Positions 5,016 to 33,869 of a DNA stretch of 35,080 nucleotides are shown here, in pieces. Source of the stretch: an uncultured Nitrosopumilales archaeon (GTDB lineage Archaea; Thermoproteota; Nitrososphaeria; Nitrososphaerales; UBA57); assembly GCA_964644785.1 (NCBI GenBank), contig CAZXXP010000004.1, forward strand, positions 1 through 35,080. The letters are read 5' to 3'. Both the position numbers and the translations under genes were made by a program. Under the pieces are notes generated by a model. It was not told the DNA's origin. It saw only the letters and a program-made list of their open reading frames with translations, and did no database searches. Within the stretch, counting starts at the first letter, position 1. Every line of letters begins with the position of its first letter.

Positions 5016-5213
5016 TGCAATAGATTTACTGCAAGGGTAAATCCCTTTTGTTATCCAGCTCTAATCATTGCATAAGCAACCTGAGCCAGATAGGCTACTG
5101 GCCAAAAAATCTGCAGGAGATTGCTGCTCATAACAGTTCTTGAGAAGGTCCGACCTCATTAGATGTGATAGGCGGATAAGAGCCAATATAATATCGCTAA
5201 TCACTGTGCGCTG

Positions 5214-7697: not shown

Positions 7698-7732
7698 GAC
7701 ACACCTTTCCCCTTAGGAAGCGTTTGAAATGC

Positions 7733-7743
7733 TTATTAATTAA
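7733..7743. promoter_or_regulatory. TTATTAATTAA TATA-like element in the trmB / radical-SAM divergent intergenic region
   Basis: This is the only strongly AT-rich block in the 70-80 bp spacer. It lies about 35-45 nt from either start codon and contains the palindrome TTAATTAA, so it could serve both directions. Confidence 0.3.
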
Positions 7744-7758
7744 CACGAGTCCTCGACA

Positions 7759-7771
7759 CCACTAATAGTGG
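7759..7771. promoter_or_regulatory. Perfect 13-bp palindrome CCACTA-A-TAGTGG, candidate operator
   Basis: Read directly from the sequence. It sits 16-28 nt downstream of the TATA-like box and just upstream of ATG 7777, where archaeal repressors typically block TSS access. Confidence 0.35.
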
Positions 7772-9444: not shown

Positions 9445-9470
9445 TTTTCTTTCTTGACGGTTAACGCCTC

Positions 9471-10034: not shown

Positions 10035-10035
10035 A

Positions 10036-10347
10036 ATGACAAGCGGGAGAAAAAACAGAACAAAGGTTGACATGACTTACAGCATACTATCTAGTGCAAA
10101 GAATGGAGCCCTTAAGACTCATCTTATGAGGCAAGCAAATTTGAATTCTATGCAGATCACAAAAATACTTGACACACTCTTAAGCAACGGCCTAATTTAC
10201 GTGGCAAACGACAAAAACTATTCCCTATACCAGACTACTTCTACTGGAGAGCAGTTCATCGCAAGTTACGAGGATCTATTGAGGTTGATGGGTCAGTCAG
10301 AAGGCAATACAAGACGGATAGAGCTACGTCAGAAGTCTGTCAGGTGA
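10036..10347 (+). CDS. Small winged-helix DNA-binding protein (HTH_45-like)
   Basis: ILSSAKNGALKTHLMRQANLNSMQITKILDTLLSNGLI matches the pattern of about 100-aa archaeal wHTH proteins. Confidence 0.5.
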   Translation: MTSGRKNRTKVDMTYSILSSAKNGALKTHLMRQANLNSMQITKILDTLLSNGLIYVANDKNYSLYQTTSTGEQFIASYEDLLRLMGQSEGNTRRIELRQKSVR

Positions 10348-12447: not shown

Positions 12448-12541
12448 GTCTTCAAACCGCGCATCTTTAAGCTTCTTGCGTCTTTTCAGATCAAAACTTC
12501 AGCAGGGAAGAAACTGATATTGGAGTAGCTCTGGAAGTAGG

Positions 12542-13792
12542 TTGATGCACAAATTCGCCCACATGGCAGACATCCACCTTGGAGCTCATAGAGAACCAAT
12601 ACTGCAAAAGCTTGAAGCAGGCGCTTTTGGCGAAGCCATGGACAAGTGTATTGGACTTGGGGTAGATTTCATACTCATCTGCGGAGATTTCTTCCACGTT
12701 GGCATAGCAGACCTTTCAATTGTGAATGAGGCATTACTCAAGATAAGGCAGGTTCAGAAAGCGGGAATCCGGATTTACGTAATTTACGGGAGTCACGATT
12801 ACACACCGAACGGAACTTCGGTGATCGACATTCTCGACACTGCTGGAGTTCTGACCAAAGTCGCTAATTGGAGCGTTGCTGGCAACAAAGTGAAACTTGA
12901 CTTTTTCGAAGATGACAAGACAGGGGCCAAACTCACTGGAATTTCTGCAAGACAAATTGGCCTTGAAAGGAAATACTATGAGATACTCGATAGGAAGAAC
13001 CTCGAGAAAGAAAACGGGTTCAAGATCTTTGCGTTCCACAGTGCAATAACGGAGTTGAAGCCAGAATATCTCAGCGAAATGGAGTCCCTTCCGATCTCAT
13101 ATTTCCCGAGTGGCTTCGACTATTATGCTGGAGGGCACATTCATGAAAAAGGAGAGTTCAAACTTCCCAACTACGAGAAAATTGTATTTCCGGGCCCTTT
13201 GTTCACAGGCTATGGTAGGGATCTGGAATCCACTGCAAGAGGTGAGCAAAGAGGTTTCTATGTTGTAAGCTTCGATAGCAAAGTAAGGGATGTTGAGTTC
13301 CAAGTTGTAAAGAACTTTGAAGCAATTTATCAGGAATACGATGCTACAGGCAAGAACTCCTTGCAGGTAGACAAGGAGCTCAGGCGGTTAATTGACCTTG
13401 ATGTAAATGGAAAATTTGTCGTGCTAAGAGTCAGGGGAGAACTTGCTGGAGGGAAGATATCTGACATTAACTTCACCGAAATAAAATCTGCCCTTCTTGG
13501 GAGGGGAGCTCTATACTTACATCTGAATAGACGGGGCCTTACTTCAAGGGAATTTCCAAAATTTGTTGCAAGTGGCGATGAAGTCTCCATCATCGAACGC
13601 ATAATAATGAAGGAAAAAATTAACCAAGTAGACGTATCGCAACAAGTACTCAAAGATCCGTTAATAGCGATGGAAGTCCTTAGAATCCTCCGTGAGGAAA
13701 AGAAGACTAACGAATCGAAACATGATTATCAGAAAAGGCTGGTGCAAAGCACAATCGAAATTCTACGGCTGAAGGGGGTCCTTGAGGAGTGA
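12542..13792 (+). CDS. mre11: DNA double-strand-break repair nuclease Mre11
   Basis: Calcineurin-like phosphoesterase motifs in order: HMADIHLG, CGDFFH, YGSHD, GGHIH. The probable start is ATG 12545; track start 12542 is TTG. Its TGA stop overlaps the rad50 GTG start as GTGA. Confidence 0.85.
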   Translation: MMHKFAHMADIHLGAHREPILQKLEAGAFGEAMDKCIGLGVDFILICGDFFHVGIADLSIVNEALLKIRQVQKAGIRIYVIYGSHDYTPNGTSVIDILDTAGVLTKVANWSVAGNKVKLDFFEDDKTGAKLTGISARQIGLERKYYEILDRKNLEKENGFKIFAFHSAITELKPEYLSEMESLPISYFPSGFDYYAGGHIHEKGEFKLPNYEKIVFPGPLFTGYGRDLESTARGEQRGFYVVSFDSKVRDVEFQVVKNFEAIYQEYDATGKNSLQVDKELRRLIDLDVNGKFVVLRVRGELAGGKISDINFTEIKSALLGRGALYLHLNRRGLTSREFPKFVASGDEVSIIERIIMKEKINQVDVSQQVLKDPLIAMEVLRILREEKKTNESKHDYQKRLVQSTIEILRLKGVLEE

Positions 13793-15816
13793 TAATCAGA
13801 AACCTCAAACTTGAAAATATCAGAAGCTATGGTGAAGCGGAAGTAAGCTTTCCTCTAGGTAAAACCCTCTTTGAAGGCGACGTAGGTTCTGGCAAGTCAA
13901 CAATTCTGATGGCCATCGAATTTGCCCTTTTTGGCCTAGGTTCTGAAAGGGGCGCTGCACTTTTGCGCACTGGAGCTTCTAAGGGAAAGGTAATTTTGGT
14001 CTTCGAAGTTGATGACAATGAATACAGCATTGAACGCAGCCTTGTCAGAAAAGGAGGAGTGATTAAACAAATCGAGGGGAGAATCATATCTCCAAATGGC
14101 GAAGTCATGGACTGTTCTCCTACCGACCTAAAAGAGAAGGTTCTCAAAATACTGAACTTCAACGAACCGCCTAGTCCCACAGCCGGGAGCTTCATCTACC
14201 GCTACGCAATATTTACTCCTCAAGAAATGATGAAAGACGTTCTGTTCTTGGATGTTGACGGGAGATCCCAAACATTGAGAAAGGCGTTCAGAATAGAGGA
14301 CTACAAAATAGCAAGTGAAAATGCTGGTATTCTGGCAAGTAAGATCAAAGATAAAACCATATGGATAGAAGCGCAGTACTCGAACCTCGCAGAGCTTCTT
14401 GTCCGTGTTGATGAAAAAGGTAAAGAGATTAGCGGGGCAGAAAAATCCCTCGCAGAATTCAACGCTTCGAAAAATGACATAACAAACGATCTGAAAGAAT
14501 TCGAAGACGGAAAAAAGTCTCTTCACAACGACCAGGCGAAACTGAACAAGTACGAAGGCGAACTGATGCCACTGCGAAAGTCAATTAATGAGAAAAAACA
14601 GCAGATGATTGAAGATCAGGACGAAATGAAGCTTACAGAAAATAAACTTGGTGGATTGCAGAGCAAGATGAAAGAGCTTGAATTAGAAAACCCTGCAGAA
14701 AGAACATCTAAAGAAATAGAAGAGGAAATTGGGGATTTAAGAGAAAGAAGGGAGAAACTTCTGCCCATAAAGGCAGAGATAGCCTTGAAGAAGTATGACT
14801 ACGGTTCAATCTTAAAGAGTGGCAAATGCCCCACCTGCGACAGGCCTATAGTATCAGGCAAGTTTGCAGACGAAGTTAGGCGGAAGGAGATTGAAGAGGG
14901 GCATGTACAGCAAGAGCTTGACACTTGCAGAATAACGCTAAAAGAACTAAATGGATTGCTTGGGAAGAAACGGGATTACGAGGGGGCTCAGAAGTATTTG
15001 CGGCAGCATAAAGAGCGTATGAATGACTACGCATCAGAGATACGGAAACTCAACAATGGTATTACAGTTGCAAGTAAAGAAATTGAGAATGCAGAAAGCC
15101 GATTGCACGATCTTGAAAAGAGCCTCAAGGACCTCGAACCAGTTTCTGCAAAGCTAGAGGAATTAGATCGAAGAATTGTTGATACTAAAGAAAAACTAGA
15201 CAGCATAAAGCAAGAGATTACTGAAACAACAACAAAAATTCTCCTCTGGAAAAAAGATCTACAAGCCCTGCAGAAGCAAATTCAAGAGTGCAAAGAGCTG
15301 CAGAAACGTGCGGAAACCCTCAAGGAATACCGTATCTGGCTAGAAGATTATTTCGTACCATGTTTGGATGTAATAGAAAAACAAGCTCTGCTCAACATAA
15401 ACCAAGAGTTCAATGCAAGCTTCCAGAAATGGTTCGCCATGCTAATTGATGATACAGGTAAAGAAGCAAGAGTGGATGAAGCTTTCACACCCATAGTCCA
15501 GCAGGATGGCTACGAGCAGAACATCTACTATCTTAGCGGAGGAGAAAGGACCAGCGTTGCGCTTGCATACAGACTTGCACTGAATACTATTGTGCAGAAA
15601 GTTTCTGCTGGAATGAATTCCAATCTGTTAATCCTCGACGAACCAACCGACGGTTTCAGCAAAGAACAGCTTGCCAAGGTAAGGGATGTTCTCGACGAAA
15701 TTCAGAGCCCCCAGGTGATCATAGTCTCACATGAAAAGGAGCTCGAGAGCTTTGCAGACCAAGTCTTCAGAGTGACAAAAATTCAAGGAGAATCGAAGAT
15801 CTTGCCTGGACCCTAG
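13789..15816 (+). CDS. rad50: DNA repair ATPase Rad50 (short, 675 aa)
   Basis: Walker A GDVGSGKST, central zinc hook CPTCDRP, ABC signature LSGGERTSVALAYRLAL, Walker B LLILDEPTDG, H-loop VSHE. Coiled-coil composition lies between the ATPase halves. Confidence 0.9.
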   Translation: MIIRNLKLENIRSYGEAEVSFPLGKTLFEGDVGSGKSTILMAIEFALFGLGSERGAALLRTGASKGKVILVFEVDDNEYSIERSLVRKGGVIKQIEGRIISPNGEVMDCSPTDLKEKVLKILNFNEPPSPTAGSFIYRYAIFTPQEMMKDVLFLDVDGRSQTLRKAFRIEDYKIASENAGILASKIKDKTIWIEAQYSNLAELLVRVDEKGKEISGAEKSLAEFNASKNDITNDLKEFEDGKKSLHNDQAKLNKYEGELMPLRKSINEKKQQMIEDQDEMKLTENKLGGLQSKMKELELENPAERTSKEIEEEIGDLRERREKLLPIKAEIALKKYDYGSILKSGKCPTCDRPIVSGKFADEVRRKEIEEGHVQQELDTCRITLKELNGLLGKKRDYEGAQKYLRQHKERMNDYASEIRKLNNGITVASKEIENAESRLHDLEKSLKDLEPVSAKLEELDRRIVDTKEKLDSIKQEITETTTKILLWKKDLQALQKQIQECKELQKRAETLKEYRIWLEDYFVPCLDVIEKQALLNINQEFNASFQKWFAMLIDDTGKEARVDEAFTPIVQQDGYEQNIYYLSGGERTSVALAYRLALNTIVQKVSAGMNSNLLILDEPTDGFSKEQLAKVRDVLDEIQSPQVIIVSHEKELESFADQVFRVTKIQGESKILPGP

Positions 15817-21118: not shown

Positions 21119-22063
21119 ATGACCTTACAGAGAAGACTCGGCGTTACAGGAATAGCAACCATAGCAATTACTCTGTTTCTTATTTCACTACCTCATTCTT
21201 ATTCGCAAGGGCCTACACCTGCAATAATCTCTGACTTTACTGTAAGAGATCCCAACGGGAACGATGTAACTAACAAACCTCTCGTAGCAGGAGGCACGTA
21301 CATGTTCTCATTCTCCGTCGCAATAGGAACTACATTAACTGACCAGATAATAATGTCAACTAGCCTTGAAAAAGTCGGAGACAGATATTGGACGCTTGAA
21401 AACAACTACCAAGGTGTCGATACAAATTCTTGGCAGCCAGGAGGCTCGAGAGTGGCGTTCAAGGCTATTCAGGGTACTCCGAAGTTTACCCTCGCAGGAA
21501 AGATTAACTCGAACATGACGGTAGAGATCGTAAAAGACGGCAAAACCACACATTTTCCGGTCAAGGTTCCAGTCCTAAGTATAGCTCTCCAGTCAACACA
21601 AAATGTTTTGGATCAAAAAATCATGAATGTCACAGACCAAGCAATAATTCAGTACCAAAACACACTGAACACTAAGCAGAACCTTTTGGCCGGTAGCCAG
21701 ACAATACCGCAATATGCTACACTTGCGCAGGGTATTATTGAACAAGCGCAGGCACTAGCCAACGTAGGCTATGTGGAAGACGCGACAAAGATTCTATCTG
21801 TAATACCTTCGTCAGGCCTGCCATCTCCTCCTGGCGTAGAATCCACTTTTCTCTACCTTGCGATAGGAATAGGGGTTGTAGCAGCGATATTCGCAGTCAT
21901 GTTCCTGAGAGCCAATTCAGGCAAATCCGTTATTGTAAGGCAGGCTGACGAAGAGGCCAAGAAGTTAGATGTCCTTCTTGTGAAGGCAAATAGAATAGAC
22001 AAAAGCCTTGCTATGGAGATTGAAACCGTTAAGAAAAAGCTTGAGGACCTGACAAAGAGGTAA
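21119..22063 (+). CDS. Type-I membrane protein: signal peptide, extracellular beta-rich and helical domain, one TM, about 50-aa cytoplasmic coiled-coil tail
   Basis: N-terminal GIATIAITLFLISLPHSYSQ is signal-like. The TM segment is FLYLAIGIGVVAAIFAVMFL near aa 243-262. The tail EEAKKLDVLLVKANRIDKSLAMEIETVKKKLEDLTKR is heptad-like. No family recognised. Confidence 0.6.
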   Translation: MTLQRRLGVTGIATIAITLFLISLPHSYSQGPTPAIISDFTVRDPNGNDVTNKPLVAGGTYMFSFSVAIGTTLTDQIIMSTSLEKVGDRYWTLENNYQGVDTNSWQPGGSRVAFKAIQGTPKFTLAGKINSNMTVEIVKDGKTTHFPVKVPVLSIALQSTQNVLDQKIMNVTDQAIIQYQNTLNTKQNLLAGSQTIPQYATLAQGIIEQAQALANVGYVEDATKILSVIPSSGLPSPPGVESTFLYLAIGIGVVAAIFAVMFLRANSGKSVIVRQADEEAKKLDVLLVKANRIDKSLAMEIETVKKKLEDLTKR

Positions 22064-22068: not shown

Positions 22069-24798
22069 GTGGCAAGCACACCAAAAAAATATCTGAGTTC
22101 AATCCAACTCGTAGGTTTGGGTGGTACGGGGGTAAACACGATAGAGGCTTTCATAAAGAACAGGAGAGGACTCCTTCCTCTTCTGAAGAAAGAAGGTATC
22201 AGAGTTTCCATGCTGGCTCTGGATGTTGCCGATCATGACATACGGAGTCTTGAAGGGGCTTACAAAGAGTTAAGGGAGGAAATGAAGACACAAGGAATAC
22301 CAGCAGAGAAGATCGATCTCATTGCCAAGACGGTAAAGTTTCCTACACCAGAATCGATGTTCGACTTCATTTCGCGCTACCCGGAATATTTGGAGAGAGA
22401 GGGTGCAAGGAAGCCCAAAGACTATACACCTTGGCTCTCCTCATCATTGGAGATTCCCCCTCTTGCAGGAGGAGTTGGCAGAAAAAGGGCACTCTCAAAA
22501 GCCATCTACGGGTTGAACTATTATCACCTAAAACTGGTGGAGAATCACATGGACTCCTTCAAGGAACACGTCTTTTCATCTACGATTCAGCCTGTCATTT
22601 TCATAATATATGGAATTGGAGGAGGCACTGGTAGCGGAATAATTCCAGACTTTGCGAGACACCTCAGGCATAAGGTTGGCAGCGGCGTTCCAATAATAGG
22701 CATTGCAATATTGCCGTGCGCAGGCGACGACCCTCCAGCCAAAGGTTCTGCCTCTTACGCTTCGCTTTTGGAGCATGAACTGCTGATAGAGAGATCTAAG
22801 AATAACTTCGTGACGCAGAATTATGGAGATACCTACCAGAACCCGTTCACAGCACTACTGATGATGCCTTTGGGACCTGCTTACGGCAGGACAGGGAGTG
22901 TAGTAGATGCGAGGATGTTGATTGACGATGCGATGGTAGACATACTCATGAAGTCTTTGAACTTTGACCTTGCCGACCTCTTTAACAACATAGGCTCAAA
23001 TGTAGATCTTTCGGGGAACTGGGTCCATATAATATCAACGCTGAAGGTTTCTTACCCAGTAGCGGAGTTCATCGACATTACAAAGATATATCTGAAGAAA
23101 TTAGACAGGATAAGAGACCTCCGCAGGGAGAAGAAGGAGGTATGGACTGGTTCAGCAAAGGATGGCAACGGAGGAATCTACGGGATACTGAAGGCCAACT
23201 TTGACGAGCTTACAAACATATACAAGCAGATTCTAATAGAGAAGAACGCCTACGACGAAAAAACCTTCGAGAAAGAACGTGCAAACTTCATTGCCGAGGG
23301 CAAGTCGATCGAGTCTGACTTGATAATGCACCTGAAGGGCGCAGAAGAGTCCATACGCATCCAGGTCAATGAGCTTGCGAAGGCCGTACTTTCCATAGGC
23401 ATGGATGCTCCAGATGGGACGATAGAGGCGAGGATACGCAACCTTGTTGAAAACGTCGTTGAAATGGCATCAGTAATTTCGAAAAACTATCAGAAGTTCC
23501 AAGCATCTGCAAATGACATTGCAGAAGATTTGAGGGGTAGCCTCCCAAGCGCACAACAGCTAACTCACAGGCAATCCCAAATTCTCAACGATACCATCGA
23601 CTTCACAGAGCTACTCGATGGCTACATAACTGGTTTGAGGCTGTACTTAGATACCAGTGCCTTTGCAGACAAGCTGGCAAAGTTAGTCGCAAGGGCGGAG
23701 AGGACAGAAGCCAATCAGGAACTGCTACGCAGGGTGCAGAAGATAATGAACCCCGAACTCGTAGTACTCTTGACACTCTTATCATCCCTATTCACTCCTA
23801 TGACTTCTGAAATCAAAACTGTGGATGCAAGGCTTAGCGATGCAAGGTTGATCAGAAAGGTGCTAGCGGAGAATGTGGAGAAGACAAAGGCGCACCTAGA
23901 GAATCTAGAAATGAAGAAGCGCAGCAGAGAAGGCGAGAAGGATAGGATAGACAAGGATCTAAGCAAGATACGCATTGCTTTTATCGCCGGAAACAAGAAA
24001 AGCTATCTGGAGACCAAGTCCAGAGAGTTTGAGCACGAGTTAAGGGTGATAGCTTCAGAGATAGAAACAGTGAACAGTGAGCTCAGTAGAGGTCAGACTA
24101 AACTTAACGAATATGTTGGGATAGAGAAGAAGTTCGATATTAATGCTGAGCTTAGGAAGGCAATTGCTGAAATTACAGAGCTCAACAATGTGTATTATGA
24201 TAAGATGAACCAAGTGATGAAGGATAGAGGCTACTATGATAAGGTCGCTGAGCTTACCGAGAGCGAGCAGCTGAAGATCATGCAGAGGATCCTTTCAGAA
24301 GAAGAGACCTCTCTGACAGACGAGAACATATTGAAGGAGATCATAGATAGGAAGCACTTCAGAGATTATCTTGTAGGCGCATTGGGAATATTCAGAATTC
24401 CTGCAACTCTGGGTTTGACGGCAGAATACAGAACAGATTACCTCTGGGTTACCGTGGTCTCGCCAAGAGGGATATGGGATAAGGATCTCGATTCAGATGT
24501 CAAGACGATACTTTCAGGCTATATCAAGCAGGACGCTTCAAAGACCATCTACATACGCGAAGTCGATTCCGACGATCCATGGACATTGAGATTCCTGATA
24601 ATCGCTGCGAAGGCTAAGGTGACCATGCTTGAAGGCTACAAAGACATGAAGTCGATTTACGAACAGAGTGTACCATCAGAACGTATTCTATCCCACTCAT
24701 TCCTACTTGAACAAGGAGTGCATGCAGTTGAGTCGGGGAAGCTGGCACCCAACAGCCTATTAGATAGGCCATCACGAGCAGAAGAACTCAAGGAATAA
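22069..24798 (+). CDS. Giant FtsZ/tubulin-superfamily GTPase (909 aa) with extensive coiled-coil region
   Basis: IQLVGLGGTGVNTIEAF (T1, compare FtsZ IGVGGGGGNAV); LAGGVGRKRA (T3-like); GIGGGTGSG (exact tubulin/FtsZ signature, nt 22618-22638); LNFDLADLF (T7 NxDxxD, nt 22960-22977). About aa 340-760 is charged and heptad-rich. GTG start with GAGGT SD 7 nt upstream. Confidence 0.8.
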   Translation: MASTPKKYLSSIQLVGLGGTGVNTIEAFIKNRRGLLPLLKKEGIRVSMLALDVADHDIRSLEGAYKELREEMKTQGIPAEKIDLIAKTVKFPTPESMFDFISRYPEYLEREGARKPKDYTPWLSSSLEIPPLAGGVGRKRALSKAIYGLNYYHLKLVENHMDSFKEHVFSSTIQPVIFIIYGIGGGTGSGIIPDFARHLRHKVGSGVPIIGIAILPCAGDDPPAKGSASYASLLEHELLIERSKNNFVTQNYGDTYQNPFTALLMMPLGPAYGRTGSVVDARMLIDDAMVDILMKSLNFDLADLFNNIGSNVDLSGNWVHIISTLKVSYPVAEFIDITKIYLKKLDRIRDLRREKKEVWTGSAKDGNGGIYGILKANFDELTNIYKQILIEKNAYDEKTFEKERANFIAEGKSIESDLIMHLKGAEESIRIQVNELAKAVLSIGMDAPDGTIEARIRNLVENVVEMASVISKNYQKFQASANDIAEDLRGSLPSAQQLTHRQSQILNDTIDFTELLDGYITGLRLYLDTSAFADKLAKLVARAERTEANQELLRRVQKIMNPELVVLLTLLSSLFTPMTSEIKTVDARLSDARLIRKVLAENVEKTKAHLENLEMKKRSREGEKDRIDKDLSKIRIAFIAGNKKSYLETKSREFEHELRVIASEIETVNSELSRGQTKLNEYVGIEKKFDINAELRKAIAEITELNNVYYDKMNQVMKDRGYYDKVAELTESEQLKIMQRILSEEETSLTDENILKEIIDRKHFRDYLVGALGIFRIPATLGLTAEYRTDYLWVTVVSPRGIWDKDLDSDVKTILSGYIKQDASKTIYIREVDSDDPWTLRFLIIAAKAKVTMLEGYKDMKSIYEQSVPSERILSHSFLLEQGVHAVESGKLAPNSLLDRPSRAEELKE

Positions 24799-24812: not shown

Positions 24813-27212
24813 ATGACTGCCAGATCTAAACGCGTCTCCCTAGACTTTCTACGTAGGAGGATTGAATCTGAAAAGGAGGACCTTGCAGACCCCCTAGTAA
24901 AGGAAGCGCACTTTCGTAGACTGCTACTTCGTATATTGACAGCTTCACTATTCTTTGCTAATACTGCACTATTCACGATTCTGCTTCCTTTCTACCCAGT
25001 CGGCCTAGCTCTAATGTTGGCTCTTGTAGCGGGCATAATAGGATACGTCTTTCCTGCTGCAGGTTTCTTTACCAGTGTCATGTTAAGCATACCAGCTTTG
25101 GCATACCAGACTGGTGTGCCGCTGTGGTGGCTAGCAATTTTGGCGATATTTGCAATCGGTTTTTCTGTCAGAATTTTCTTTGACTCTAACAGTGCGTTCA
25201 CAGCTTCAATAGGGATGCTGGTCGCTGCAGTAACTCTTACGCCTGCTTACTTTATCATAATCCCTATCATAATAGCTGTTGGATTATTCCGTCAGAAAGA
25301 GAAAGTTTTTGCCCCGCTTGCTGTCGTGATAATGTTTCTGATTTTTTTCATACCTATTCACCATGCTGAATTTTCTTCCATTCTGAAAGCTTCGCTTGGA
25401 GAAAAGATCCAGACGATGCGAGCCGAGGAGATTTTCAGCTCAATGAACAGTCTTGCAATTCCCCTGTTCCATCAACTCAGTATCAGCGTTAGACCTGCAC
25501 CAAAATCATTCGATCTGCCAGCGTTGTCAGAAGCGTTTGGCTCCGCCTTCCAGCCCAGCGGATTTTTCCATCCTTACCTCTTTCTCATGATCGACAGGCT
25601 GATCATATTCTTCTATCCCATCTTGTTAACAGTGACACTATCAGTTTCTTTAGTCATCGAAAGGTTTTGGCATTGGTTAAGAGATAGGAACGCTGCCGTA
25701 GCACCCAGTATAAAATTCTCCAGCATTCTCACCATATTCGTTGGAACGGCAGTTTTCATACTTCCGCTTGTCGCCTTATCCCCAGCGCTGAGATATCTCA
25801 CATCAATAGATAGCGCCATGCCTTCGGAAGCTATTACTGGCAGCAACGCTCTGGCTGCTCTGATAGCGTCTGCAGTTACTATTGGGTTTTTAGTAACGAT
25901 AGTTTCGCAATGGTCGTTAAGGAGAAACTCCATAGCTAATACGGCTTCAGCTGTATTAGGAAAAAGCAAGACGTTATTCCCCATACTCGAGAATCTAGTC
26001 AAATATGTCTCCAGTGTAAATCAAAATAGTCAAGGGATCAGCATATCCGAAGAGGTTGCACAAGTAGCTATGGCGGATGAAGATCTCAGGCTCACTCAAA
26101 AGAACATAGAGACCTTACGCCCTGTGGTTATGGCGCAAAGACTTGCAAGGCTCAACAATATAGGTCAGGATCTACCGGGAATCAAGGCATCCGTAAACCT
26201 CAAGCTCGGTAATTACTACATTGACAAGGTAGCCAAATACAACTCGATGGTAGAACAGGTTACAGGATTTGGGATGCAGGGCTTGAAGAAGATCACTGAA
26301 CCTACAACCGATCGAATTAGCGAAATGGCAGACGATCTGCTGAGAGTGCAGCAGACATTAAACGAGATGTATTTCGAGCTTGCTGAGAAGGTCTTAGAAG
26401 CCACTAAAGGTGTTATCGAAACGATAAACCTTGAGTTTGAACACATAGATACAACTTCGGTTGAAGTGAGCAGGAAATTCCTCGATGAGAAGAAGGGTGA
26501 AGTTGCAGTTGAGTATTTAATTAATACACTGATAGAGCTGGATGCAAGGTACGGGAAGTTATTGCAGCAGATCGTTGAGAGGGAGGATTCCATTACAATC
26601 GGGATAAGAAAGATATACTCTTTTCAAATGCTCCCTATGTTCGAAACTCTGGGTAAGGCCGAAACATCCTCGCAGTCTTACGGAGCGATAGTTAAGCTTG
26701 GTGAAGCAGTAAACCGTTCAGGTACTGTAAGTATGACATACCTTGCAGAGACGATGACTAGGTTTCAAATCATTCAGGACGGCCTCAAAGTAATATCCTC
26801 CGAACTTATGTTGCACATTGGGGAGCTTGAAGGGCTCAACGATGCAAGAGCTTCGGGCTTTAACTGGGGTAAAGATACAAACGTCATGATCGAGCTGGAA
26901 ACGGCGATAAAAGCAATGCAGAGTAGGGAAAAGCTTGGAATAGAGGAGAGGATGGCAAATGCGGAAGTTGCCTCAAAGCATATAGAGCAGGCTACGAAGA
27001 CAGTTTCTCAGTACCTAGTGATGAGCGAACTCATACTGTTATGTCCCTTGCTTGACCAAATAATTGATTCCAAGCTCAGGAGCTCCGGCGCGGTGAAACC
27101 TGAAGAAATACCTGTTGCACAGAAGTATGCGAAGCAGTTGCTGAGGCTATACGCGTCTAGGCACGCTGATTCTGCCTATGATATTATGCTGAATAGGTTG
27201 CAGCCTAAATAG
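24813..27212 (+). CDS. Polytopic membrane protein (about 10 TM, aa ~35-370) with a ~430-aa C-terminal all-helical soluble domain
   Basis: Successive hydrophobic helices after a basic N-terminal segment (RSKRVSLDFLRRR). The C-terminal half is hydrophilic and Leu/Glu/Lys-rich. It starts 14 nt after the FtsZ-like gene. No family recognised. Confidence 0.65.
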   Translation: MTARSKRVSLDFLRRRIESEKEDLADPLVKEAHFRRLLLRILTASLFFANTALFTILLPFYPVGLALMLALVAGIIGYVFPAAGFFTSVMLSIPALAYQTGVPLWWLAILAIFAIGFSVRIFFDSNSAFTASIGMLVAAVTLTPAYFIIIPIIIAVGLFRQKEKVFAPLAVVIMFLIFFIPIHHAEFSSILKASLGEKIQTMRAEEIFSSMNSLAIPLFHQLSISVRPAPKSFDLPALSEAFGSAFQPSGFFHPYLFLMIDRLIIFFYPILLTVTLSVSLVIERFWHWLRDRNAAVAPSIKFSSILTIFVGTAVFILPLVALSPALRYLTSIDSAMPSEAITGSNALAALIASAVTIGFLVTIVSQWSLRRNSIANTASAVLGKSKTLFPILENLVKYVSSVNQNSQGISISEEVAQVAMADEDLRLTQKNIETLRPVVMAQRLARLNNIGQDLPGIKASVNLKLGNYYIDKVAKYNSMVEQVTGFGMQGLKKITEPTTDRISEMADDLLRVQQTLNEMYFELAEKVLEATKGVIETINLEFEHIDTTSVEVSRKFLDEKKGEVAVEYLINTLIELDARYGKLLQQIVEREDSITIGIRKIYSFQMLPMFETLGKAETSSQSYGAIVKLGEAVNRSGTVSMTYLAETMTRFQIIQDGLKVISSELMLHIGELEGLNDARASGFNWGKDTNVMIELETAIKAMQSREKLGIEERMANAEVASKHIEQATKTVSQYLVMSELILLCPLLDQIIDSKLRSSGAVKPEEIPVAQKYAKQLLRLYASRHADSAYDIMLNRLQPK

Positions 27213-27213: not shown

Positions 27214-28272
27214 CTATACGCTTGCTGCTTTTGTCAGGTAGTCTTGCAGTTCATCAAGCAGTAGATTGGATATTCTCTGCGAGATGTCAGATAAGTTCTT
27301 GGTAGTAATTGCATTGTTGACAATTTCAACAAGGTGCTTGCCTATCTTGGTTTCGACGACTGGGAGAAGTCTCCTAATGCTGCGAATGGCTTGATCTATT
27401 TCTCTTTGTTTACCGAGTTCAGTACTTACCAGCAATTCGTTTACGGCGAGTGTCAACAGCATGAAATAGGAGAGAGAAGACCAGTTCGGGTGCATTTCTC
27501 TGGCATATTGAGTCCACTTCTTGGATATCGGGGTCTTTGAATGGACTGTTGTCCCAAGCTCTGCGAACAATTCAGAAACTGTTTCGTTTACAGCCAGCGG
27601 AGAGTGGGATTTTATCGCCTCAGAAAAATTGACCGTCACCTGTCCAAGGTTTGTCTCTGTACCCTTAATCAATCCCTCTGCCGCGGTCAAAATACTCTTT
27701 GCATGAACTTCTGCATTCCTCCATTCTCCCTGCCCTATTTCGTTCAACATATCGCGTGTTGGAGAAATCATTGACCATATGTTTATCATTGATTCGTAGA
27801 GATAAACTACGAACAGTAAGTCTTCCCTCTCAGCCTGCTTCTTCTTCTGCACTTCTTCTTCTAATCTCCTCTTGCTGGCCTGCAGAATCTCCGAGACCTG
27901 ATTCAATATACTCAAAGCACTACTACTGCTATTTGTAACGAGAACTAGGCTCGCAGGTTTTGCATTCTCCGTGTAGCTGACCTTGATAGAAGAATTCCCT
28001 TCTTGACTGATACCATTTATCTGAGAATAGTTCAATGCGATAACCGTTGCAAGTTTGTTAGAAAATAGTGAAGCTTTCTGTTCTACGATAATCCTCCTCT
28101 CGGTTAGCGTAAGCTTAACCTTGCCTCTGCCCTGAAGTTTTATGTCATCGCTTATTGCAATGATTCTTTCTGGTTCCACTTTACATTGCCGTTCATGTGG
28201 CATAAGGTAAAAAGCATATCTCAGGAAATGGTTCTTATCCTCAGCCGTTACAGATGTGTGTATGGAAGGCAC
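27214..28272 (-). CDS. Hypothetical protein: N-terminal PH/GRAM-like beta-sandwich plus helical C-terminal domain
   Basis: ERIIAISDDIKLQGRGKVKLTLTERRIIVEQ...VIALNYSQINGISQE...SIKVSYTE...ASLVLVTN is followed by the helix LSILNQVSEILQASKRRLEEE. This is the strand/helix order of PH-like folds, read by pattern only. An alternative start is ATG 28203. Confidence 0.45.
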   Translation of the reverse strand: MPSIHTSVTAEDKNHFLRYAFYLMPHERQCKVEPERIIAISDDIKLQGRGKVKLTLTERRIIVEQKASLFSNKLATVIALNYSQINGISQEGNSSIKVSYTENAKPASLVLVTNSSSSALSILNQVSEILQASKRRLEEEVQKKKQAEREDLLFVVYLYESMINIWSMISPTRDMLNEIGQGEWRNAEVHAKSILTAAEGLIKGTETNLGQVTVNFSEAIKSHSPLAVNETVSELFAELGTTVHSKTPISKKWTQYAREMHPNWSSLSYFMLLTLAVNELLVSTELGKQREIDQAIRSIRRLLPVVETKIGKHLVEIVNNAITTKNLSDISQRISNLLLDELQDYLTKAASV

Positions 28273-29596
28273 TCAACAGGAAACCGTCCTCATTCCATGT
28301 CCCGTAGGACATAAAGCCCTCACGGGTATGACGCAATGCCCAAGATGCGGCCTTCCAATAATTTTGTATGAGAAAGAGCTGATAGATATTGTAGACAGGT
28401 TCAAGACCCTCTCACAAAACTTTGCGAAGGTTCAGCAGTTGTTTCCAATTGGTGTAGGCCTATGGGGCTCCAAGCTCCTACTAGCAACAGTCGCTTCACA
28501 TGATATCAGGCTGACAAAGTTTTCAACAATTGGTGCTTCGACTACAGATATTCAGATGTTCGCATCTGCAAAACAGAAGATGATACCCAGAGACAATGTG
28601 GAAAACATTCTGCGCAAGATAAATTACCCTCTGAAGATTGTTGCAGACATGAGAGGAGGTATATGGAAGAGAGCGGAGATAACTGCAAGGAACGATTCAG
28701 CTCTTGCGGATAAAATAAGCATTCTCAGAATTAATGATATAAAAGAAGAGCAGGTCGCTTTCTTCATGGGTTCTTTGAGCGAGGGAATTGTGGCTGGGGT
28801 TACACCATTCCTTTGTTCCGCTGCTAGAGAAAACAATCCTAATGTCTTAACCATATTTCTCTTGACTCTGCCAGCTGAAGACACGTCTGAAGAAGCGCAG
28901 TTCAATGCCTACTGTGGCCTTGCTATGCTTCTCCAATCGGGCATGCATACCGGAATAATTATGCAAGAATCAGCCCTTAAGGCCCTTAAGGGGATTTCAA
29001 GATCTGGTGCAGAATTGAATGCAGATTTCCTACTCCCTACGATGTGTGACATATTGCTCGCGATTGGTGTCGAAGGCCTAGCAGAGATATCCCATATTTC
29101 GCAGTCGTTCAGACTGCAGGTCCTATCGCCCGCCTTTGCTTATGGGGCAAGCTATGAAATTTACGGAAGCCTTGCAAATATCGTAGAGTACGCGATGTAC
29201 AAAATCTTGGTGCCAATAAACCCGGAAAACGTCATTGCTGCAGTTACCATCGCAAGAATTCCAAGAAGACTCCTTGAAATAGTCGGTAAGGATGCCCTCG
29301 AAGAGCAGTTTACAAGTTGGACTAGGCGCCGCTTCCCGGCAATAAGAGGAAGTCTGCTTAGAATCATTACAAAAGAAGAACCGTCAGACAGAATAGATGC
29401 AATTCTCTTACTAGGTGGCAAGAACCTAGAAGCTATTACCAATTCGATCAAAGATGGCTACATCGAGTTCAAAGCTAACTTGGATACAATGGACCTATGG
29501 GAGGAATATTCGATAACTACTGACGAATTGAAGAATATCGAGGAGTCAATATTAAAATACGACAAGAGAATAAGCGCGCTTCTCAAGAAGAAGTAG
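28256..29596 (+). CDS. Zinc-ribbon protein with a putative nucleotide-site-degenerate FtsZ/tubulin-like domain
   Basis: N-terminal CPVGH-x11-CPRCG. Then FPIGVGLWGSKLL (T1 position), RGGIWKRAEI (T3 position), AFFMGSLSEGIVAGVTPFLCSAARE (T4 position, GGGTGSG lost), LTIFLLTLPAEDTSEEAQFNAYCGLAMLL (T5/H5 position) and IDAILLLGGKNLEAI (C-terminal subdomain). Order and spacing follow FtsZ. The probable start is ATG 28262. Confidence 0.5.
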   Translation: MCMEGTQQETVLIPCPVGHKALTGMTQCPRCGLPIILYEKELIDIVDRFKTLSQNFAKVQQLFPIGVGLWGSKLLLATVASHDIRLTKFSTIGASTTDIQMFASAKQKMIPRDNVENILRKINYPLKIVADMRGGIWKRAEITARNDSALADKISILRINDIKEEQVAFFMGSLSEGIVAGVTPFLCSAARENNPNVLTIFLLTLPAEDTSEEAQFNAYCGLAMLLQSGMHTGIIMQESALKALKGISRSGAELNADFLLPTMCDILLAIGVEGLAEISHISQSFRLQVLSPAFAYGASYEIYGSLANIVEYAMYKILVPINPENVIAAVTIARIPRRLLEIVGKDALEEQFTSWTRRRFPAIRGSLLRIITKEEPSDRIDAILLLGGKNLEAITNSIKDGYIEFKANLDTMDLWEEYSITTDELKNIEESILKYDKRISALLKKK

Positions 29597-32500
29597 ATTT
29601 TCTTTGGAAAACCCTTGAGAGCACTAATTGTGTTGTTATCGAAATTGCAGCCACTGCTATTATTATGCCTGTAGCAAATGCAGCAATGGTTGCGTCTGAG
29701 CGTACTAAGTTAATCATGAAGCTAAGGTCTCTGTCAGTTATTTCGGGGCTGACAACCTGCTGCTCCCCCCTGTATTTTATCGTGAACTGATACTCGCCAG
29801 GAATTAGGTGTTCATACAATGGATTATCACTCTCCTTTATCTCTTTATGCGTAGGTCCCTCCATCGTCAGCTCAGCATCGGGGATTACCAACCCAAATGG
29901 ATCTCTAACGGTAAATGAAACGTCGAATGTTTTCAGATATGCCACAACATTCCTGGTGCTGTGGCTGTACATCAATGAGATTACCATTCTATCCCCCAGA
30001 TTGGTGAACTCTGGTTTGGCGAGCTTACCGTCCAACAACACAACTATCTTATCAGCAGAAGAGCGCAGGTCATCGATTAGGAGGTTGCTGGGAACAGTTA
30101 TGTTGAGGACCCCCACGCTGCCTTCCTTTCCAACAAGCGTGAGCTTAACAGCTCTAACATCAGTTGATGATAGAGCGCTCGTAACTGTTGAGTTCGATAT
30201 AATCGTAATCAATTTATCAGAATAACTAACATGCTCGACCTGTCCTGTTTGAAGCTTTCCATCGCTACGCAACTGCACAGTATGTTCTATCGTACTCCTC
30301 TCCAAGAAACTTCCTCCCATCGAATCGATTATGGGGAATACTGGAGATACTTCCATAACCGAAAATGTATAATTTGTTCTTCTGGGTCCGCTAACAAAAA
30401 TCGGATATTTGGATAGTGGAGTAGATGAACTCACAAGGACCATTTGGCCTTCGGCTTTCAGCGCTCTGATTTCAGGTGCTTGAGGGTCTACAGGTGTCCA
30501 TATAGCCGCATATGGTAAACCCACGATAAAGTCTCTACCTGCATCTGTCCTCATGACTATGTTGGTGTCACCTCTCGTATATACTGTAAAACCATCAAGG
30601 GGTGGGTACATCGTCGCCTTGTAACTCTCAGTTATATCTACAGCCCTTCCTTCATAAGTAACAACTTCAATGGGACCTCCCCACTTGGGGCTCAGCTCAT
30701 AATACATCTTGGGATCCTTGCCTAGATTCTGTATGCCCAAGGGGTATCTTGTTGGGGATATCTCGAACAGACCTTCTGCAGGGTCTACAAATAGCCAGTC
30801 CCTGTCTACTCTGAACTCGATCCAGGCATGCAGTGTAAGATATGGTATCTCTTGCAATGGTGACATCTCCATGATTCCAATTAAAGGTCTTACCGGTATA
30901 TCCACCGATCGCAAGAGGCCGCCATAGAATACAACAATGACCCTCGAGTCACCGGTTACCTTCTGGTTGCTTAGTGCTCCTCCCGTAGCCTGCAGTTCCG
31001 ATGCTATATGTGCTATACTTTGAGGCTTAATGTTGGTTGCTGGCTCGTAATGCTGAACGACAAAGGTGAATAGGGCCCTTGCCTTGTCTACGGGGCTTGC
31101 AATCTGAGGTACATTTGCTACCGCAAGTATGTTCTCAGCGAGTGCCTTTACTTCAGGTGTAGTTGCCATAAGGTCGTTCAGCACTGCAAGATTTTCAACA
31201 CTAACTGCCTTACCAATAGCCCGAAGGTTATCCCTGCTTCGACTCGAAAATATCTTTAGAGGGACAGAAATACTATCTGCAGAGTCTGCAGTCTCGTTTA
31301 TCTTCGCTTCAAAGGCCCCGGTTCCATTTTTGAGGAACCTTAGCTCATATGCAATAACATAGGACTGCCCAGACTGAAAGTTCAGCACTATGCTCTTGGG
31401 ATTCACGCTTATGCCATCGAAACTTGATTGTGCGTCTAGCCTTACCTCGCCCGGCCTGTCATTCGTATTTGCTATCTTCAGCCAGATATAGGCAGATTCT
31501 CCTTGGAACTCCGTCTTTGATATGGTCGTATTTGCCCAGACTATACCGACCTTCGGTAGAAACACGTAGTTTGCGGTTAGATTGAAAGGTCTATCTATTC
31601 TAATGGAAACTAACAGACCCGTGAACCTGTTCCCGTCCACAGTCCAGAACCTGAACGAATAGTCCCTGACCCTCTTTGTTGTGGCAAATTCAGTGGTTAA
31701 ATCTGTATCATGCCACTTGTTTCCGTTAGATATTTCGGCCAAACTCTTCGGCTCGGTGGCTGCATAAATGAAGAATTGTAGTGTATAAGTTGATGTTACG
31801 ACCTTTGGGCCGTTCATCAGGACTGTAGTGTTCGTTTTGGAATCTGAAATATTCCCCATCCAGCCTCTGAAATCGTATCTCCTGTTCTCAGCTATGTTCA
31901 CTATCTGCGGAGTTGAGATACTGGCCTGTGTATTGTTGTCGAACCATCCGGCTCCCAATGATGGTGGGGGAGAAATGGGTAGAATGCTCCTCACCGTTAG
32001 AAAGTACTGTGTCTTGAACTCAGCTTTATATGTTCCCTGAGAGTTTATCGTCAGAATCCTTGCCTGCGTAGTTGTCCCATCTGACCACCTCGTAAAGACA
32101 TAGCGTATTCCAGAGGTTCCATTGACTATCTGGTTTGGCACGCCTAATGTATGGATCTCGCCCTGCACCCATCTATATTGTTTCGGAAGATCTGTAGGTT
32201 GAATGAGTGCCCCATCAACAATGAATGAGGAAACTCGTGGCGATGAATCTATAGTTACAGTTAGAAGTGGAAGTATGACGAGAACTGCCTGCGCAGACCT
32301 CCTTACAATGCCGCTGTTTGCCTCAATCAAAAAGAGGAAGTTCCCTGCACCAGAAGACTCAGAAGCCCTGACGCTCAGCAAGGCATTTCTTGTTACACCT
32401 ACTTCCAAGCTAAAGGAGTTGGGAACTATTGAGATTTCGACATCGCTGGGAATACCCGTGGACCTCATGTCTATCAGACCGGAGAAGCCTCCCCGTGAAA

Positions 32501-33869
32501 CTACGGAGATATTGAAAAGGCCTTGCTTCCCTTGCGCTATTACAAGATTTTCTGGTCTGATCGAAATCAGAAAGTCCCTTACAGGTATGTTCAGTCTCAG
32601 CGTTGAGGACTTTACCAGAGGTGTTCTAGTGGCTGTAATTGTAAGGTCTAGAGATCCTGGAGCTGCTGTGAGGTTAAGCGAGAGTGTCAGCGTCGCTGTT
32701 ACTACGCCGTTGGGAGGAGGCGTAACTTCAGGAGGGTTGATACTGGCGAACAATCCAGGCACTAGCGTAGGAAGGGATAAAGTAACGGCAGAGTTGAAAC
32801 CTTCCGTCGACTGCACAACTATCTGGAACGTCCTTGTAGAACCCAAAGTCATAGTTACATCGGATGGAGCTATTGAAACTACGAAGTTCCCAGCAATGTT
32901 CAATATTAGTGTATTTGTTCCTGTAATGTAGCCAGCCCTTGTAGCTGTCACGCTTATCCTAGCAGATATTGTCAGTGCAGATAATTGAATCGGAGCCCCC
33001 TCGGAGGTAACTCTAATCGTTATTATTGAGATTTTGGACACGACCGCCGGGTTTGGAATTGCGTCTATTGCTATAACAAGCCCTGGCAACGGCTTTACCA
33101 TAATAGTAACAAGAAAAGAGTGAGTTATCTGAGGGGAACCCGGATATATACCTACGACGAAACCACTATAGGTGCCTGGAAGCGCGGTAAGGGCAGCATC
33201 TAGTGTTAGCGTTGCCGATATCCAGCTCTGCTTGGGAACCAAGACAGACCCGGTGAGGGTAACCAAGACACCTGGAGCCTGATTGTTCCATATCCAAGAA
33301 AGTTGGATCTGACCGTTGAAGTTTGAGATAGAGCTAATATTCACAAAGGCTGAGGCCGATGCCTGCTGTCTTACTTCAACCGTGCTAGGAGATACCGAAA
33401 TCGCAAAGTCACCCACATAAAGAGTAAGCGTCACGTCATTTGTACGGACTGTGGACGCGGTATCATTCGCAAACTTCCCGTTAGCTATGATAATGTAAGT
33501 TCCCGGGGGAGTGCTAGTTGTCGTGCTGATAGTAAGCGTAACAATGGCATTGAGTCCCGTTCCACCCGTAGGCACGGTAAGCGACGAAGGCGAGAAAACG
33601 GCAGAGGACAAAGGTATCCCTGACGGACTAATACTTACGACATTCAAGTTGAGTGTCGGTCCCAAAGGCGGAGGATCGTATTTCTGTCCCACCACTGTCA
33701 CAGTAAACTGTTTTTGAGCACCTTTGGGAATCTCTGCCGAAGTAGAATCAGGCGTAAGCGTTATTGGCGGACCGGCCTCGACATGTGGGAGAAAAGCGAA
33801 ATATGCAATAGCAAGGGCTAGACTAGTGACAAGTAAAACATTGCCGCTAGTTACCTTCGGATGCACCAC
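29583..33869 (-). CDS. Very large (1428 aa) cell-surface protein: signal peptide, repeated Ig-like/beta-sandwich domains, transglutaminase-like core, C-terminal TM anchor
   Basis: N-terminal LLVTSLALAIAYFAFLPHVEA. There are at least 3 repeats of the pattern F.(I/V)S(V/I).P..v....G.....v.V.S..GF.G...L. InlB-B-repeat-like units are present (Y.LTV...GAGWF...RYDFRGW). The TGase-like core reads GDSRVIVVFYGGLLRSVDIPVR...HAWIEF...FVDP (nt ~30780-30960). The C-terminal segment is AAFATGIIIAVAAISITTQLVL. GTG start. Confidence 0.8.
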   Translation of the reverse strand: MVHPKVTSGNVLLVTSLALAIAYFAFLPHVEAGPPITLTPDSTSAEIPKGAQKQFTVTVVGQKYDPPPLGPTLNLNVVSISPSGIPLSSAVFSPSSLTVPTGGTGLNAIVTLTISTTTSTPPGTYIIIANGKFANDTASTVRTNDVTLTLYVGDFAISVSPSTVEVRQQASASAFVNISSISNFNGQIQLSWIWNNQAPGVLVTLTGSVLVPKQSWISATLTLDAALTALPGTYSGFVVGIYPGSPQITHSFLVTIMVKPLPGLVIAIDAIPNPAVVSKISIITIRVTSEGAPIQLSALTISARISVTATRAGYITGTNTLILNIAGNFVVSIAPSDVTMTLGSTRTFQIVVQSTEGFNSAVTLSLPTLVPGLFASINPPEVTPPPNGVVTATLTLSLNLTAAPGSLDLTITATRTPLVKSSTLRLNIPVRDFLISIRPENLVIAQGKQGLFNISVVSRGGFSGLIDMRSTGIPSDVEISIVPNSFSLEVGVTRNALLSVRASESSGAGNFLFLIEANSGIVRRSAQAVLVILPLLTVTIDSSPRVSSFIVDGALIQPTDLPKQYRWVQGEIHTLGVPNQIVNGTSGIRYVFTRWSDGTTTQARILTINSQGTYKAEFKTQYFLTVRSILPISPPPSLGAGWFDNNTQASISTPQIVNIAENRRYDFRGWMGNISDSKTNTTVLMNGPKVVTSTYTLQFFIYAATEPKSLAEISNGNKWHDTDLTTEFATTKRVRDYSFRFWTVDGNRFTGLLVSIRIDRPFNLTANYVFLPKVGIVWANTTISKTEFQGESAYIWLKIANTNDRPGEVRLDAQSSFDGISVNPKSIVLNFQSGQSYVIAYELRFLKNGTGAFEAKINETADSADSISVPLKIFSSRSRDNLRAIGKAVSVENLAVLNDLMATTPEVKALAENILAVANVPQIASPVDKARALFTFVVQHYEPATNIKPQSIAHIASELQATGGALSNQKVTGDSRVIVVFYGGLLRSVDIPVRPLIGIMEMSPLQEIPYLTLHAWIEFRVDRDWLFVDPAEGLFEISPTRYPLGIQNLGKDPKMYYELSPKWGGPIEVVTYEGRAVDITESYKATMYPPLDGFTVYTRGDTNIVMRTDAGRDFIVGLPYAAIWTPVDPQAPEIRALKAEGQMVLVSSSTPLSKYPIFVSGPRRTNYTFSVMEVSPVFPIIDSMGGSFLERSTIEHTVQLRSDGKLQTGQVEHVSYSDKLITIISNSTVTSALSSTDVRAVKLTLVGKEGSVGVLNITVPSNLLIDDLRSSADKIVVLLDGKLAKPEFTNLGDRMVISLMYSHSTRNVVAYLKTFDVSFTVRDPFGLVIPDAELTMEGPTHKEIKESDNPLYEHLIPGEYQFTIKYRGEQQVVSPEITDRDLSFMINLVRSDATIAAFATGIIIAVAAISITTQLVLSRVFQRKSTSS

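Follow-up and report, generated by a model that had tools for sequence, protein, structure and literature searches.

We analysed a window of 35,080 nucleotides from an uncultured Nitrosopumilales archaeon (assembly GCA_964644785.1, contig CAZXXP010000004.1, positions 1 to 35,080 of the forward strand) and focus on gene E, which codes for a soluble protein with a predicted N-terminal zinc ribbon and a diverged body of the tubulin/FtsZ type, and which belongs to a conserved, previously undescribed module of five genes, A-B-C-D-E. The module, the region between its last two genes and the gene that follows it are laid out as follows:

21119-22063, plus strand: gene A, the module's first gene, 314 residues, two predicted transmembrane segments, no family match (transmembrane prediction, homology)
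22069-24798, plus strand: gene B, a 909-residue FtsZl1-type GTPase (Pfam PF13809, Tubulin_2)
24813-27212, plus strand: gene C, 799 residues, about eight predicted transmembrane segments within residues 40-365, C-terminal half soluble (about 430 residues; transmembrane prediction)
27214-28203, minus strand: gene D, a soluble protein of about 329 residues, the longest open reading frame reaching 28272 (open reading frame, homology)
28204-28261: divergent intergenic region between D and E, 58 bp (88% column identity)
28262-29596, plus strand: gene E, a zinc-ribbon protein of the tubulin/FtsZ superfamily, 444 residues (homologs, AlphaFold, Foldseek)
29583-33869, minus strand: gene F, 1428 residues, a transglutaminase core with terminal transmembrane or hydrophobic segments (Pfam, transmembrane prediction)

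The reading frame of gene E is present at 28256-29596 on the plus strand, with 446 codons in its longest form, which opens with a GTG at 28256. The probable start is the ATG at 28262, two codons further on, because the database protein and all homologs begin there; a 1-nt indel throws the GTG out of frame in four relatives, which keep the context of the ATG. The product thus has 444 residues, with the stop codon at 29594-29596, and all residue numbers given here refer to it (those of the preliminary description, which was made from the letters of the sequence, are higher by two). Two antisense open reading frames within E (28624-28905 and 29161-29451, minus strand) are unsupported and were disregarded. 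Along the protein we distinguish the following elements:

28286-28363, plus strand: N-terminal zinc ribbon, residues 9-34, with ligands C13 (28298-28300), H17, C26 and C29 (28346-28348) (alignment A4, AlphaFold)
28367-28426, plus strand: linker helix, residues 36-55, from the ribbon to the tubulin-like core, with a predicted local distance difference test score (pLDDT) of 69-83 (AlphaFold)
28433-29020, plus strand: N-terminal domain of the nucleotide-binding type, residues 58-253, with loops T1-T6 (Pfam, profile alignments, AlphaFold)
28445-28477, plus strand: T1 loop PIGVGLWGSKL, with the GxGxxG glycines retained and Leu and Trp in place of two glycines (alignments)
28769-28807, plus strand: T4 loop GSLSEGIVAGVTP, in place of GGGTG[ST]G, with E174 invariant in the thaumarchaeal clade (alignments)
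29021-29107, plus strand: helix H7, residues 254-267, then a shortened T7/H8 region, residues 268-282, including Glu275 (alignments, AlphaFold)
29108-29437, plus strand: C-terminal domain of the FtsZ_C/tubulin_C type, residues 283-392 (alignments, AlphaFold, Foldseek)
29441-29587, plus strand: C-terminal helices, residues 394-442, with conserved Y400, L412, W413 and D434 (AlphaFold, conservation)

Taken alone, the sequence of E gives a faint signal. It matches Pfam family PF00091 with an E-value of 6.9e-5 and 23.6 bits, below the 33-bit cut-off, residues 65-240 aligning to profile positions 5-184 of 190, and both the single sequence (E-value 0.056) and a profile of 10 sequences give marginal matches in the PDB. 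No NCBIfam model matches E, including the FtsZ equivalog TIGR00065, whose cut-off lies at 295 bits. A word-indexed search returned just ten close homologs (alignment A1), and a HMMER profile search over 1.84 billion representative sequences collected 92 relatives at an E-value of 1e-3 or lower, 61 of them at 1e-10 or lower; wherever a source name is given, these are annotated as 'hypothetical protein'. Among 60 mostly full-length relatives, 43 match PF00091 individually and 29 match TIGR00065 weakly (best E-value 2.4e-11). A profile built from 81 sequences of the family finds CetZ2 (4b45, 4.8e-19), Odinarchaeota FtsZ1 (1.3e-18) and CetZ1 (8.5e-18) in the PDB, followed by Methanocaldococcus jannaschii FtsZ (about 5e-17) and then by TubZ, BtubB and tubulins, and it aligns loops T1-T6 of Escherichia coli FtsZ with an E-value of 5.8e-16.

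The same 81-sequence alignment yields an AlphaFold2 model of E with a pLDDT of 92.9 and a predicted template-modelling score (pTM) of 0.86, which supersedes an earlier, poor model from 10 sequences (pLDDT 53) that pointed to CetZ and tubulin. When the model is compared with the PDB by Foldseek, the best 50 matches listed all belong to the tubulin superfamily (tubulin, CetZ, BtubA), over about 360-470 columns and with template-modelling (TM) scores of 0.55-0.76. The top match is CetZ (3zid, E-value 5e-16, TM-score 0.72-0.76), followed by gamma- and beta-tubulin (0.65-0.71 over about 450 columns) and then by CetZ1 and BtubA. Judged by profiles and model together, E is a complete two-domain protein of the tubulin/FtsZ fold, highly diverged, whose fold appears closest to CetZ and tubulin; membership in CetZ proper is not established, and the FtsZ profile scores are almost equal.

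Ahead of this body, the pattern C13-x3-H17-x8-C26-x2-C29 is invariant in alignment A4 (13 sequences, 23-100% identity), and of the 60 sequences in the family alignment, the 28 that belong to ribbon-bearing clades all have the four ligands. AlphaFold models the segment as two beta-hairpins (pLDDT about 91), and two relatives match the Pfam family Zn_Ribbon_1 (PF13240). With conserved Cys/His ligands placed on two modelled hairpin knuckles, E carries a zinc ribbon for which metal binding is predicted. The C-terminal domain bears two motifs of its own family, G-x-S-x-E-I-Y (residues 295-301) and S-D-R-I-D-x-x-L-L-L-G-G (residues 375-386).

The state of the nucleotide pocket was mapped through hidden Markov model (HMM) alignments to E. 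coli FtsZ, Odinarchaeota FtsZ1 and CetZ2, and through the family alignment. In T1, G64-V-G66-L-W68-G69-S-K of E aligns with G17-V-G-G-G-G-G-N24 of E. coli, so that two glycines have become Leu and Trp. In T4, S173-E174-G175-I-V-A-G179 stands opposite G105-G-G-T-G-T-G111, with five of the seven positions altered, among them the phosphate-binding Thr, and the GGGTG[ST]G signature is absent. T5 corresponds to LPAED, with its Pro (P204) retained, and the Asn of T6 is replaced by Q235. Against canonical relatives the T7 loop is six residues short and has neither the Asn nor the first Asp; in both MAFFT and HMM sequence alignments the place of the second acidic residue is taken by Glu275, GLAE275I occupying the place of D-T-S-E-V in CetZ2 and of I-D-x-x-D-Y in distant relatives. 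This Glu is invariant across the 10 closest homologs, and the acid is lost in marine members of the same clade. These replacements suggest that canonical GTP binding and hydrolysis have most likely been lost in E of the thaumarchaeal clade.

Much of this had been anticipated in the preliminary description, which read an N-terminal CPVGH...CPRCG ribbon, aligned the rest of the protein with FtsZ by eye and called its GTP-binding loops degenerate. The ribbon has been borne out by its invariant ligands and modelled hairpins, and the homology by the profile matches to CetZ and FtsZ (1e-19 to 1e-17) and by the structural matches, so that the absence of any tubulin/FtsZ match, which had been named as the finding that would speak against it, did not occur. 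The placement of the motifs (T1, T4, T5/T6, T7 and LLLGGKNLEAI, the last a strand of the C-terminal domain in the AlphaFold model) agrees with the HMM and family alignments, as do the loss of the glycine-rich T4 signature and the degeneration of T1, SEGIVAG and GVGLWGSK standing at the aligned sites. The claim that the T7 Asn/Asp pair is lost holds, in the sequence alignments, for the Asn and the first Asp, and Glu275 still stands opposite the second acidic residue.

Five groups emerge in the family from a rough neighbour-joining tree combined with motif tables. Clade I, the thaumarchaeal group to which E of the window belongs, has the ribbon and a T4 degenerated to L-[GS]-E-x-[LI]-[VT]-[AS]-[GA], while clades II and III combine the ribbon with a canonical LGGGTGSG. 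Clade IV is distant and ribbon-less, with canonical GGGTGNG and T7, and clade V lacks the ribbon, often has long N-terminal extensions and typically shows x-W-D-G-x-G-S-A-L-L-P at T4 (LSEG… in a few), which appears, from these motifs, to mark another loss of the GTP signature, independent of the first. By their taxon labels, clade I members are Nitrososphaerales, Thaumarchaeota or Thermoproteota, clade II contains Dehalococcoidia (two metagenome-assembled genomes, MAGs), and clade V includes Bathyarchaeota. Because ribbon-bearing relatives outside Thaumarchaeota retain the canonical GGGTGSG, the sequences indicate that the degenerate pocket is a derived thaumarchaeal state that arose from a GTP-competent, ribbon-bearing ancestor. 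In several clade V relatives (986-2962 of locus L015; P0048-P0052) the N-terminal extensions are of low complexity and 200-400 residues long, T4 reads WDGxGSALLP and FtsZl1 is still adjacent. The Dehalococcoidia-labelled proteins of clade II are P0020 and P0165, and at locus L013 (JACUUS010000001.1) FtsZl1 is 54% identical to the thaumarchaeal one, which suggests either inter-domain transfer of the entire module or mis-binning.

The altered pocket does not look like a relic. Across the 12 clade I sequences compared, whose identity falls to about 29%, conservation is higher in the pocket loops than elsewhere in the core (0.72 vs 0.63, permutation p = 0.0006), no exchange is seen over this range at G64, G66, G69, W135, E174, G179, F214-Y217 or Q235, and the reading frame is intact at every clade I locus recovered. 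Because the frames are intact, the pocket loops outrank the core in conservation and the replacement residues are themselves invariant, the pocket is, by these sequence measures, under purifying selection and not decaying.

The second strand of evidence is genomic. At eight loci with unrelated flanks (L012, L013, L040, L041, L046, L052, L054 and L056), the genes stand in the order A-B-C-D-E and are all co-directional; BLAST finds A, B, C and E homologous at all eight and D at four, and E is there 24-28% identical to that of the window and has a canonical GTP site. Other arrangements occur, at least four in total: the order is C-E-A-B at L014, and E adjoins an inverted B at L015 and L055. In 31 loci the sequence reaches at least 6.3 kb upstream of E, and in 30 of these a homolog of B lies beside E, so that the presence of FtsZ-like genes next to E homologs elsewhere, which the preliminary description had proposed to check, is found under differing flanks. 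The sole exception is L016, a ribbon-less clade IV locus with a different cluster. There, positions 3557-15066 encode a second tubulin-like protein matching PF00091, SpaA-like, CarboxypepD_reg-like and transglutaminase/CDC48_N proteins and a relative of E with canonical GTP motifs, with no FtsZl1; we take it to be another uncharacterised multi-tubulin locus. Membership of E in the module is thus directly observed, and its linkage to B within the module is obligate; that E has the tubulin fold and belongs to this module we hold, in combination, to be virtually certain.

Gene B is itself a member of the superfamily, but of another branch. It matches PF13809 (Tubulin_2) with an E-value of 4e-13, has canonical T1 (GLGGTGVN) and T4 (GIGGGTGSG) loops and carries a long C-terminal extension; Pfam matches on it stop near residue 250, and FtsZl1 proteins have been described as being without recognisable T6-H7 and C-terminal-domain elements (Makarova and Koonin, 2010; PMC2875224). 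E, for its part, has no PF13809 match and does contain an FtsZ-type C-terminal domain within its 444 residues, which sets it apart from FtsZl1. With the E-family profile, B reaches about 20 bits, confined to the T4 region, vs 65-72 bits for CetZ and FtsZ, so that the module joins two anciently separated tubulin lineages. On this score we rejected a recent duplication of B as the origin of E; of the earlier idea that E is an FtsZ-like paralog of the 909-residue protein, the common superfamily stands and the close relationship does not. We found no experimental data on FtsZl1 in the literature searched.

As for the other genes of the locus, A and D gave no meaningful sequence matches in the PDB, and genes A-F have no match among the PADLOC defence families and NCBIfam, save a weak, far sub-threshold one of ftsZ (TIGR00065) on B. 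A reading of the locus as a conflict or defence system is not supported, there being no defence-system signature in A-F. In C, a Walker-A-like ASAVLGKS (residues 378-385, past the last transmembrane helix) was considered as a sign of the 'membrane GTPase' of the operons described in 2010 and rejected as a chance match, as it is unconserved. Gene F is convergent with E, the two overlapping tail to tail by 14 nt, and this linkage is seen in clade I loci only. Wherever D was detected, it is inverted relative to its neighbours in clade I loci and runs with them in clade II loci (e.g., at 9024-10001 on the plus strand of L012); the loci with an inverted D are also those in which E has lost the GTP signature and F is present. 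Over the 58 bp that separate the divergent D and E, column identity among five relatives is 88%, the flanking proteins being only 68-74% identical, and there is a near-invariant core, ATAAGGTAAAAAG..TATCTCAGGAAA...TTCTTATCCT; by its conservation the region is probably a bidirectional promoter or a regulatory site.

Close relatives keep the entire arrangement, together with the PFOR genes beyond it, which taken by itself might reflect simple synteny. The composition of the window is unremarkable (GC 43-47%), and its remainder is an ordinary piece of archaeal chromosome, with tandem PurP paralogs, Mre11/Rad50, Nre, PAC2, TrmB regulators and PFOR. The PurP-type genes (DUF1246 and DUF1297) form a head-to-tail pair at 10324-12447 on the minus strand, and an overlapping pair at 12542-15816 on the plus strand encodes a calcineurin-like phosphoesterase (Metallophos; Mre11-type) followed by an ATPase of the SMC_N/AAA_23/SbcC type (Rad50-type). 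The closest genome records come from groundwater Thaumarchaeota MAGs (74% identity), and near-identical DNA of the locus was met solely in sediment, freshwater-sediment and subsurface metagenomes, all of them DNA runs. For a metagenome scan, alignment A4 was chosen, the broader alignment A2 being too diverse.

Among characterised relatives, the best structural and profile match is to CetZ (3zid, 4b45, 4b46), which shares with E the full two-domain fold and the C-terminal helices. In the T7 of CetZ2, D-T-S-E, it is the Glu that aligns with Glu275. Unlike E, CetZ has a canonical GGGTGSG and T7, has no zinc ribbon and is not co-encoded with FtsZl1, and identity is 14-16%. The published archaeal FtsZl1 operons consist of A2, FtsZl1, a P-loop membrane GTPase and A1, contain no second tubulin-fold gene and were earlier predicted to be membrane-associated (PMC2875224). 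The present module resembles them in FtsZl1, in its membrane association and in an A2-like small membrane protein upstream, and differs in that FtsZl1 is followed by an eight-transmembrane protein without a conserved P-loop, a soluble protein and the zinc-ribbon tubulin-superfamily protein. Alpha/beta-tubulin and BtubA/B offer a further parallel, as two distinct tubulin-superfamily genes kept together, which the adjacency of B and E at 30 of 31 loci mirrors; a heterodimer of the two would be an analogy. In the E-B pair the nucleotide switch of B is intact, and changes in E affect both its nucleotide-binding elements and its T7. Alpha- and beta-tubulin are closely related, and each binds GTP. 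E and B are very distant from each other, B being without a C-terminal domain and clade I E without the signature. Later surveys use Tubulin_2 proteins as an outgroup and mention unspecified 'non-canonical' tubulin-superfamily proteins in Thaumarchaeota. In the literature searched we found neither a zinc-ribbon-fused tubulin-family protein nor a two-tubulin FtsZl1 operon. New here are thus a zinc-ribbon, CetZ-like family of the tubulin superfamily and the five-gene FtsZl1 module in which it lies, the tubulin superfamily and FtsZl1 being already known.

We propose, with a probability of about 0.5, that E is a non-catalytic structural partner or adaptor of an FtsZl1 assembly at the membrane. This role is inferred from four features of E: its tubulin-type fold, its zinc ribbon, a pocket that is rewritten yet under constraint, and obligate linkage with a GTP-competent FtsZl1 in a module rich in membrane proteins. 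B would supply the nucleotide switch, and E would be a subunit of the FtsZl1 assembly that no longer uses GTP in Thaumarchaeota, with its ribbon and family-specific C-domain motifs (G-x-S-x-E-I-Y and S-D-R-I-D..LLLGG) as putative docking surfaces. The changed clade I loops (G-x-G-L-W-G in T1, S-E-G-I-V-A-G in T4, Q in T6) are those that contact phosphate and base, and each has become fixed on a new residue that is conserved in its turn. Three steps of this proposal are inferred: that GTP binding has been lost, that E physically touches B (or A, C or D), and that the setting is one of membrane remodelling. Several observations weigh against it. Clade II proteins have a canonical GTP site and occupy the same slot in the module, so that E may ancestrally have been an active GTPase, and thaumarchaeal E might still bind a nucleotide non-canonically, given that the GxGxxG of T1 and two glycines of T4 are kept. 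The sequences do not support a classical trans-activating role of the T7 of E on the GTP of B, because T7 is poorly conserved across the clades of the family. Conserved synteny inside Thaumarchaeota is, moreover, in part shared ancestry alone. The preliminary description had read the degenerate E as a non-hydrolysing protein that could cap, nucleate or co-polymerise with the 909-residue GTPase, which is conjecture. The site is indeed degenerate in clade I, yet because relatives with an intact GGGTGSG hold the same slot, loss of the GTP site is a thaumarchaeal specialisation and not what defines the role.

The retained pocket glycines lead to a different possibility, which we consider unlikely though worth keeping in view: that E forms nucleotide-dependent, self-assembling CetZ-like filaments, with non-canonical loops that bind GTP or another nucleotide, and that FtsZl1 merely regulates or anchors them. 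In favour of this stand the complete two-domain fold, H7 and C-terminal domain included, the kept T1 GxGxxG, G175 and G179, the stronger constraint on the pocket loops than on the rest of the core, Glu275 at the catalytic T7 position and the canonical GTP motifs of the sister clades. However, five of seven signature residues are replaced, among them a Thr that is now Ile and glycines that are now Glu or Val within the loop that wraps the phosphates, the T1 glycines have given way to Trp and Leu, the Asn of T6 and that of H7 are replaced, and the E275 acid is lost in marine clade I members. The precedent of Nmar_1262 from Nitrosopumilus maritimus points the same way: this protein, with the motif AGKAGSA and no recognisable T7, did not polymerise in yeast (PMC3684127) and is the sole degenerate-signature protein of the superfamily tested in the literature searched, a precedent for degenerate proteins of this kind not self-polymerising. 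One could go further and equate E with this known thaumarchaeal 'FtsZ', as a functionless relic of FtsZ-based division, both proteins being from the same phylum, with a degenerate signature and without the T7, and reviews mentioning 'non-canonical' members there. This we regard as very improbable. The degenerate motif is another one, AGKAGSA occurring in none of the 164 proteins retrieved; no ribbon is evident in the published N-terminus; the exhaustive family search did not return Nmar_1262; and its primers encode an N-terminus (MSFQVKEP), T4 flanks and a C-terminus that differ from those of E, a comparison with primer-derived sequence only. N. maritimus is not listed with FtsZl1 in the 2010 census (PMC2875224), whereas E adjoins FtsZl1 at 30 of 31 loci, and the strong conservation with invariant new residues does not suit a relic. 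Orthology of the two is not supported by the motif or by the primer-derived termini and T4 flanks, the parts of Nmar_1262 covered by this limited comparison.

The distance between E and B opens yet another route, which we think quite improbable, in which E acts in the module without FtsZl1, its ribbon and C-terminal domain binding A or C, D or nucleic acid and its tubulin fold serving as an inert scaffold. The five genes do co-vary as a block, the probable promoter region from which E and D diverge hardly varies among relatives, and an E profile that barely recognises B, together with the reported lack of recognisable T6-H7 and C-domain elements in FtsZl1, means that longitudinal contacts of the tubulin type are not guaranteed. 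Yet no neighbour is as conserved or as constant as B, which is present even at the rearranged loci L014, L015 and L055, where D or A was undetected, and the best-conserved surface of E is its former nucleotide face, the longitudinal interface of all tubulin-type polymers.

Taken further, the proposal that E is a structural partner of FtsZl1 leads to a two-tubulin membrane machine, so far undescribed, in which a GTP-competent half-tubulin, FtsZl1, reduced to the nucleotide-binding domain, would pair longitudinally with a complete but nucleotide-dead CetZ-like E anchored by its zinc ribbon, and in which the rewritten pocket (Trp68, Trp135, Glu174) would itself serve as a pseudo-nucleotide built into E or as a socket for the partner; its carriers would be Thaumarchaeota and, by MAG labels, also Dehalococcoidia and Bathyarchaeota. 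In this specific form the idea is speculative and rather unlikely. If it were true, a functional asymmetry of the alpha/beta type would have arisen independently of eukaryotic tubulin.

FtsZl1 has been a bioinformatic orphan since 2010, predicted to remodel membranes and without recognisable filament-forming elements. One of its subfamilies is now seen to be regularly paired with a protein of complete tubulin fold (30 of 31 loci), and we offer the hypothesis that this complete subunit, E, may supply the C-terminal domain and the interface elements that FtsZl1 is missing. The sister clades, which differ only in the GTP site of E, constitute a natural experiment on how functional asymmetry arises in tubulin-type pairs. 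With its 92 representative clusters and diagnostic architecture, the unannotated family defined here extends the cytoskeletal repertoire of the non-ammonia-oxidising Thaumarchaeota.

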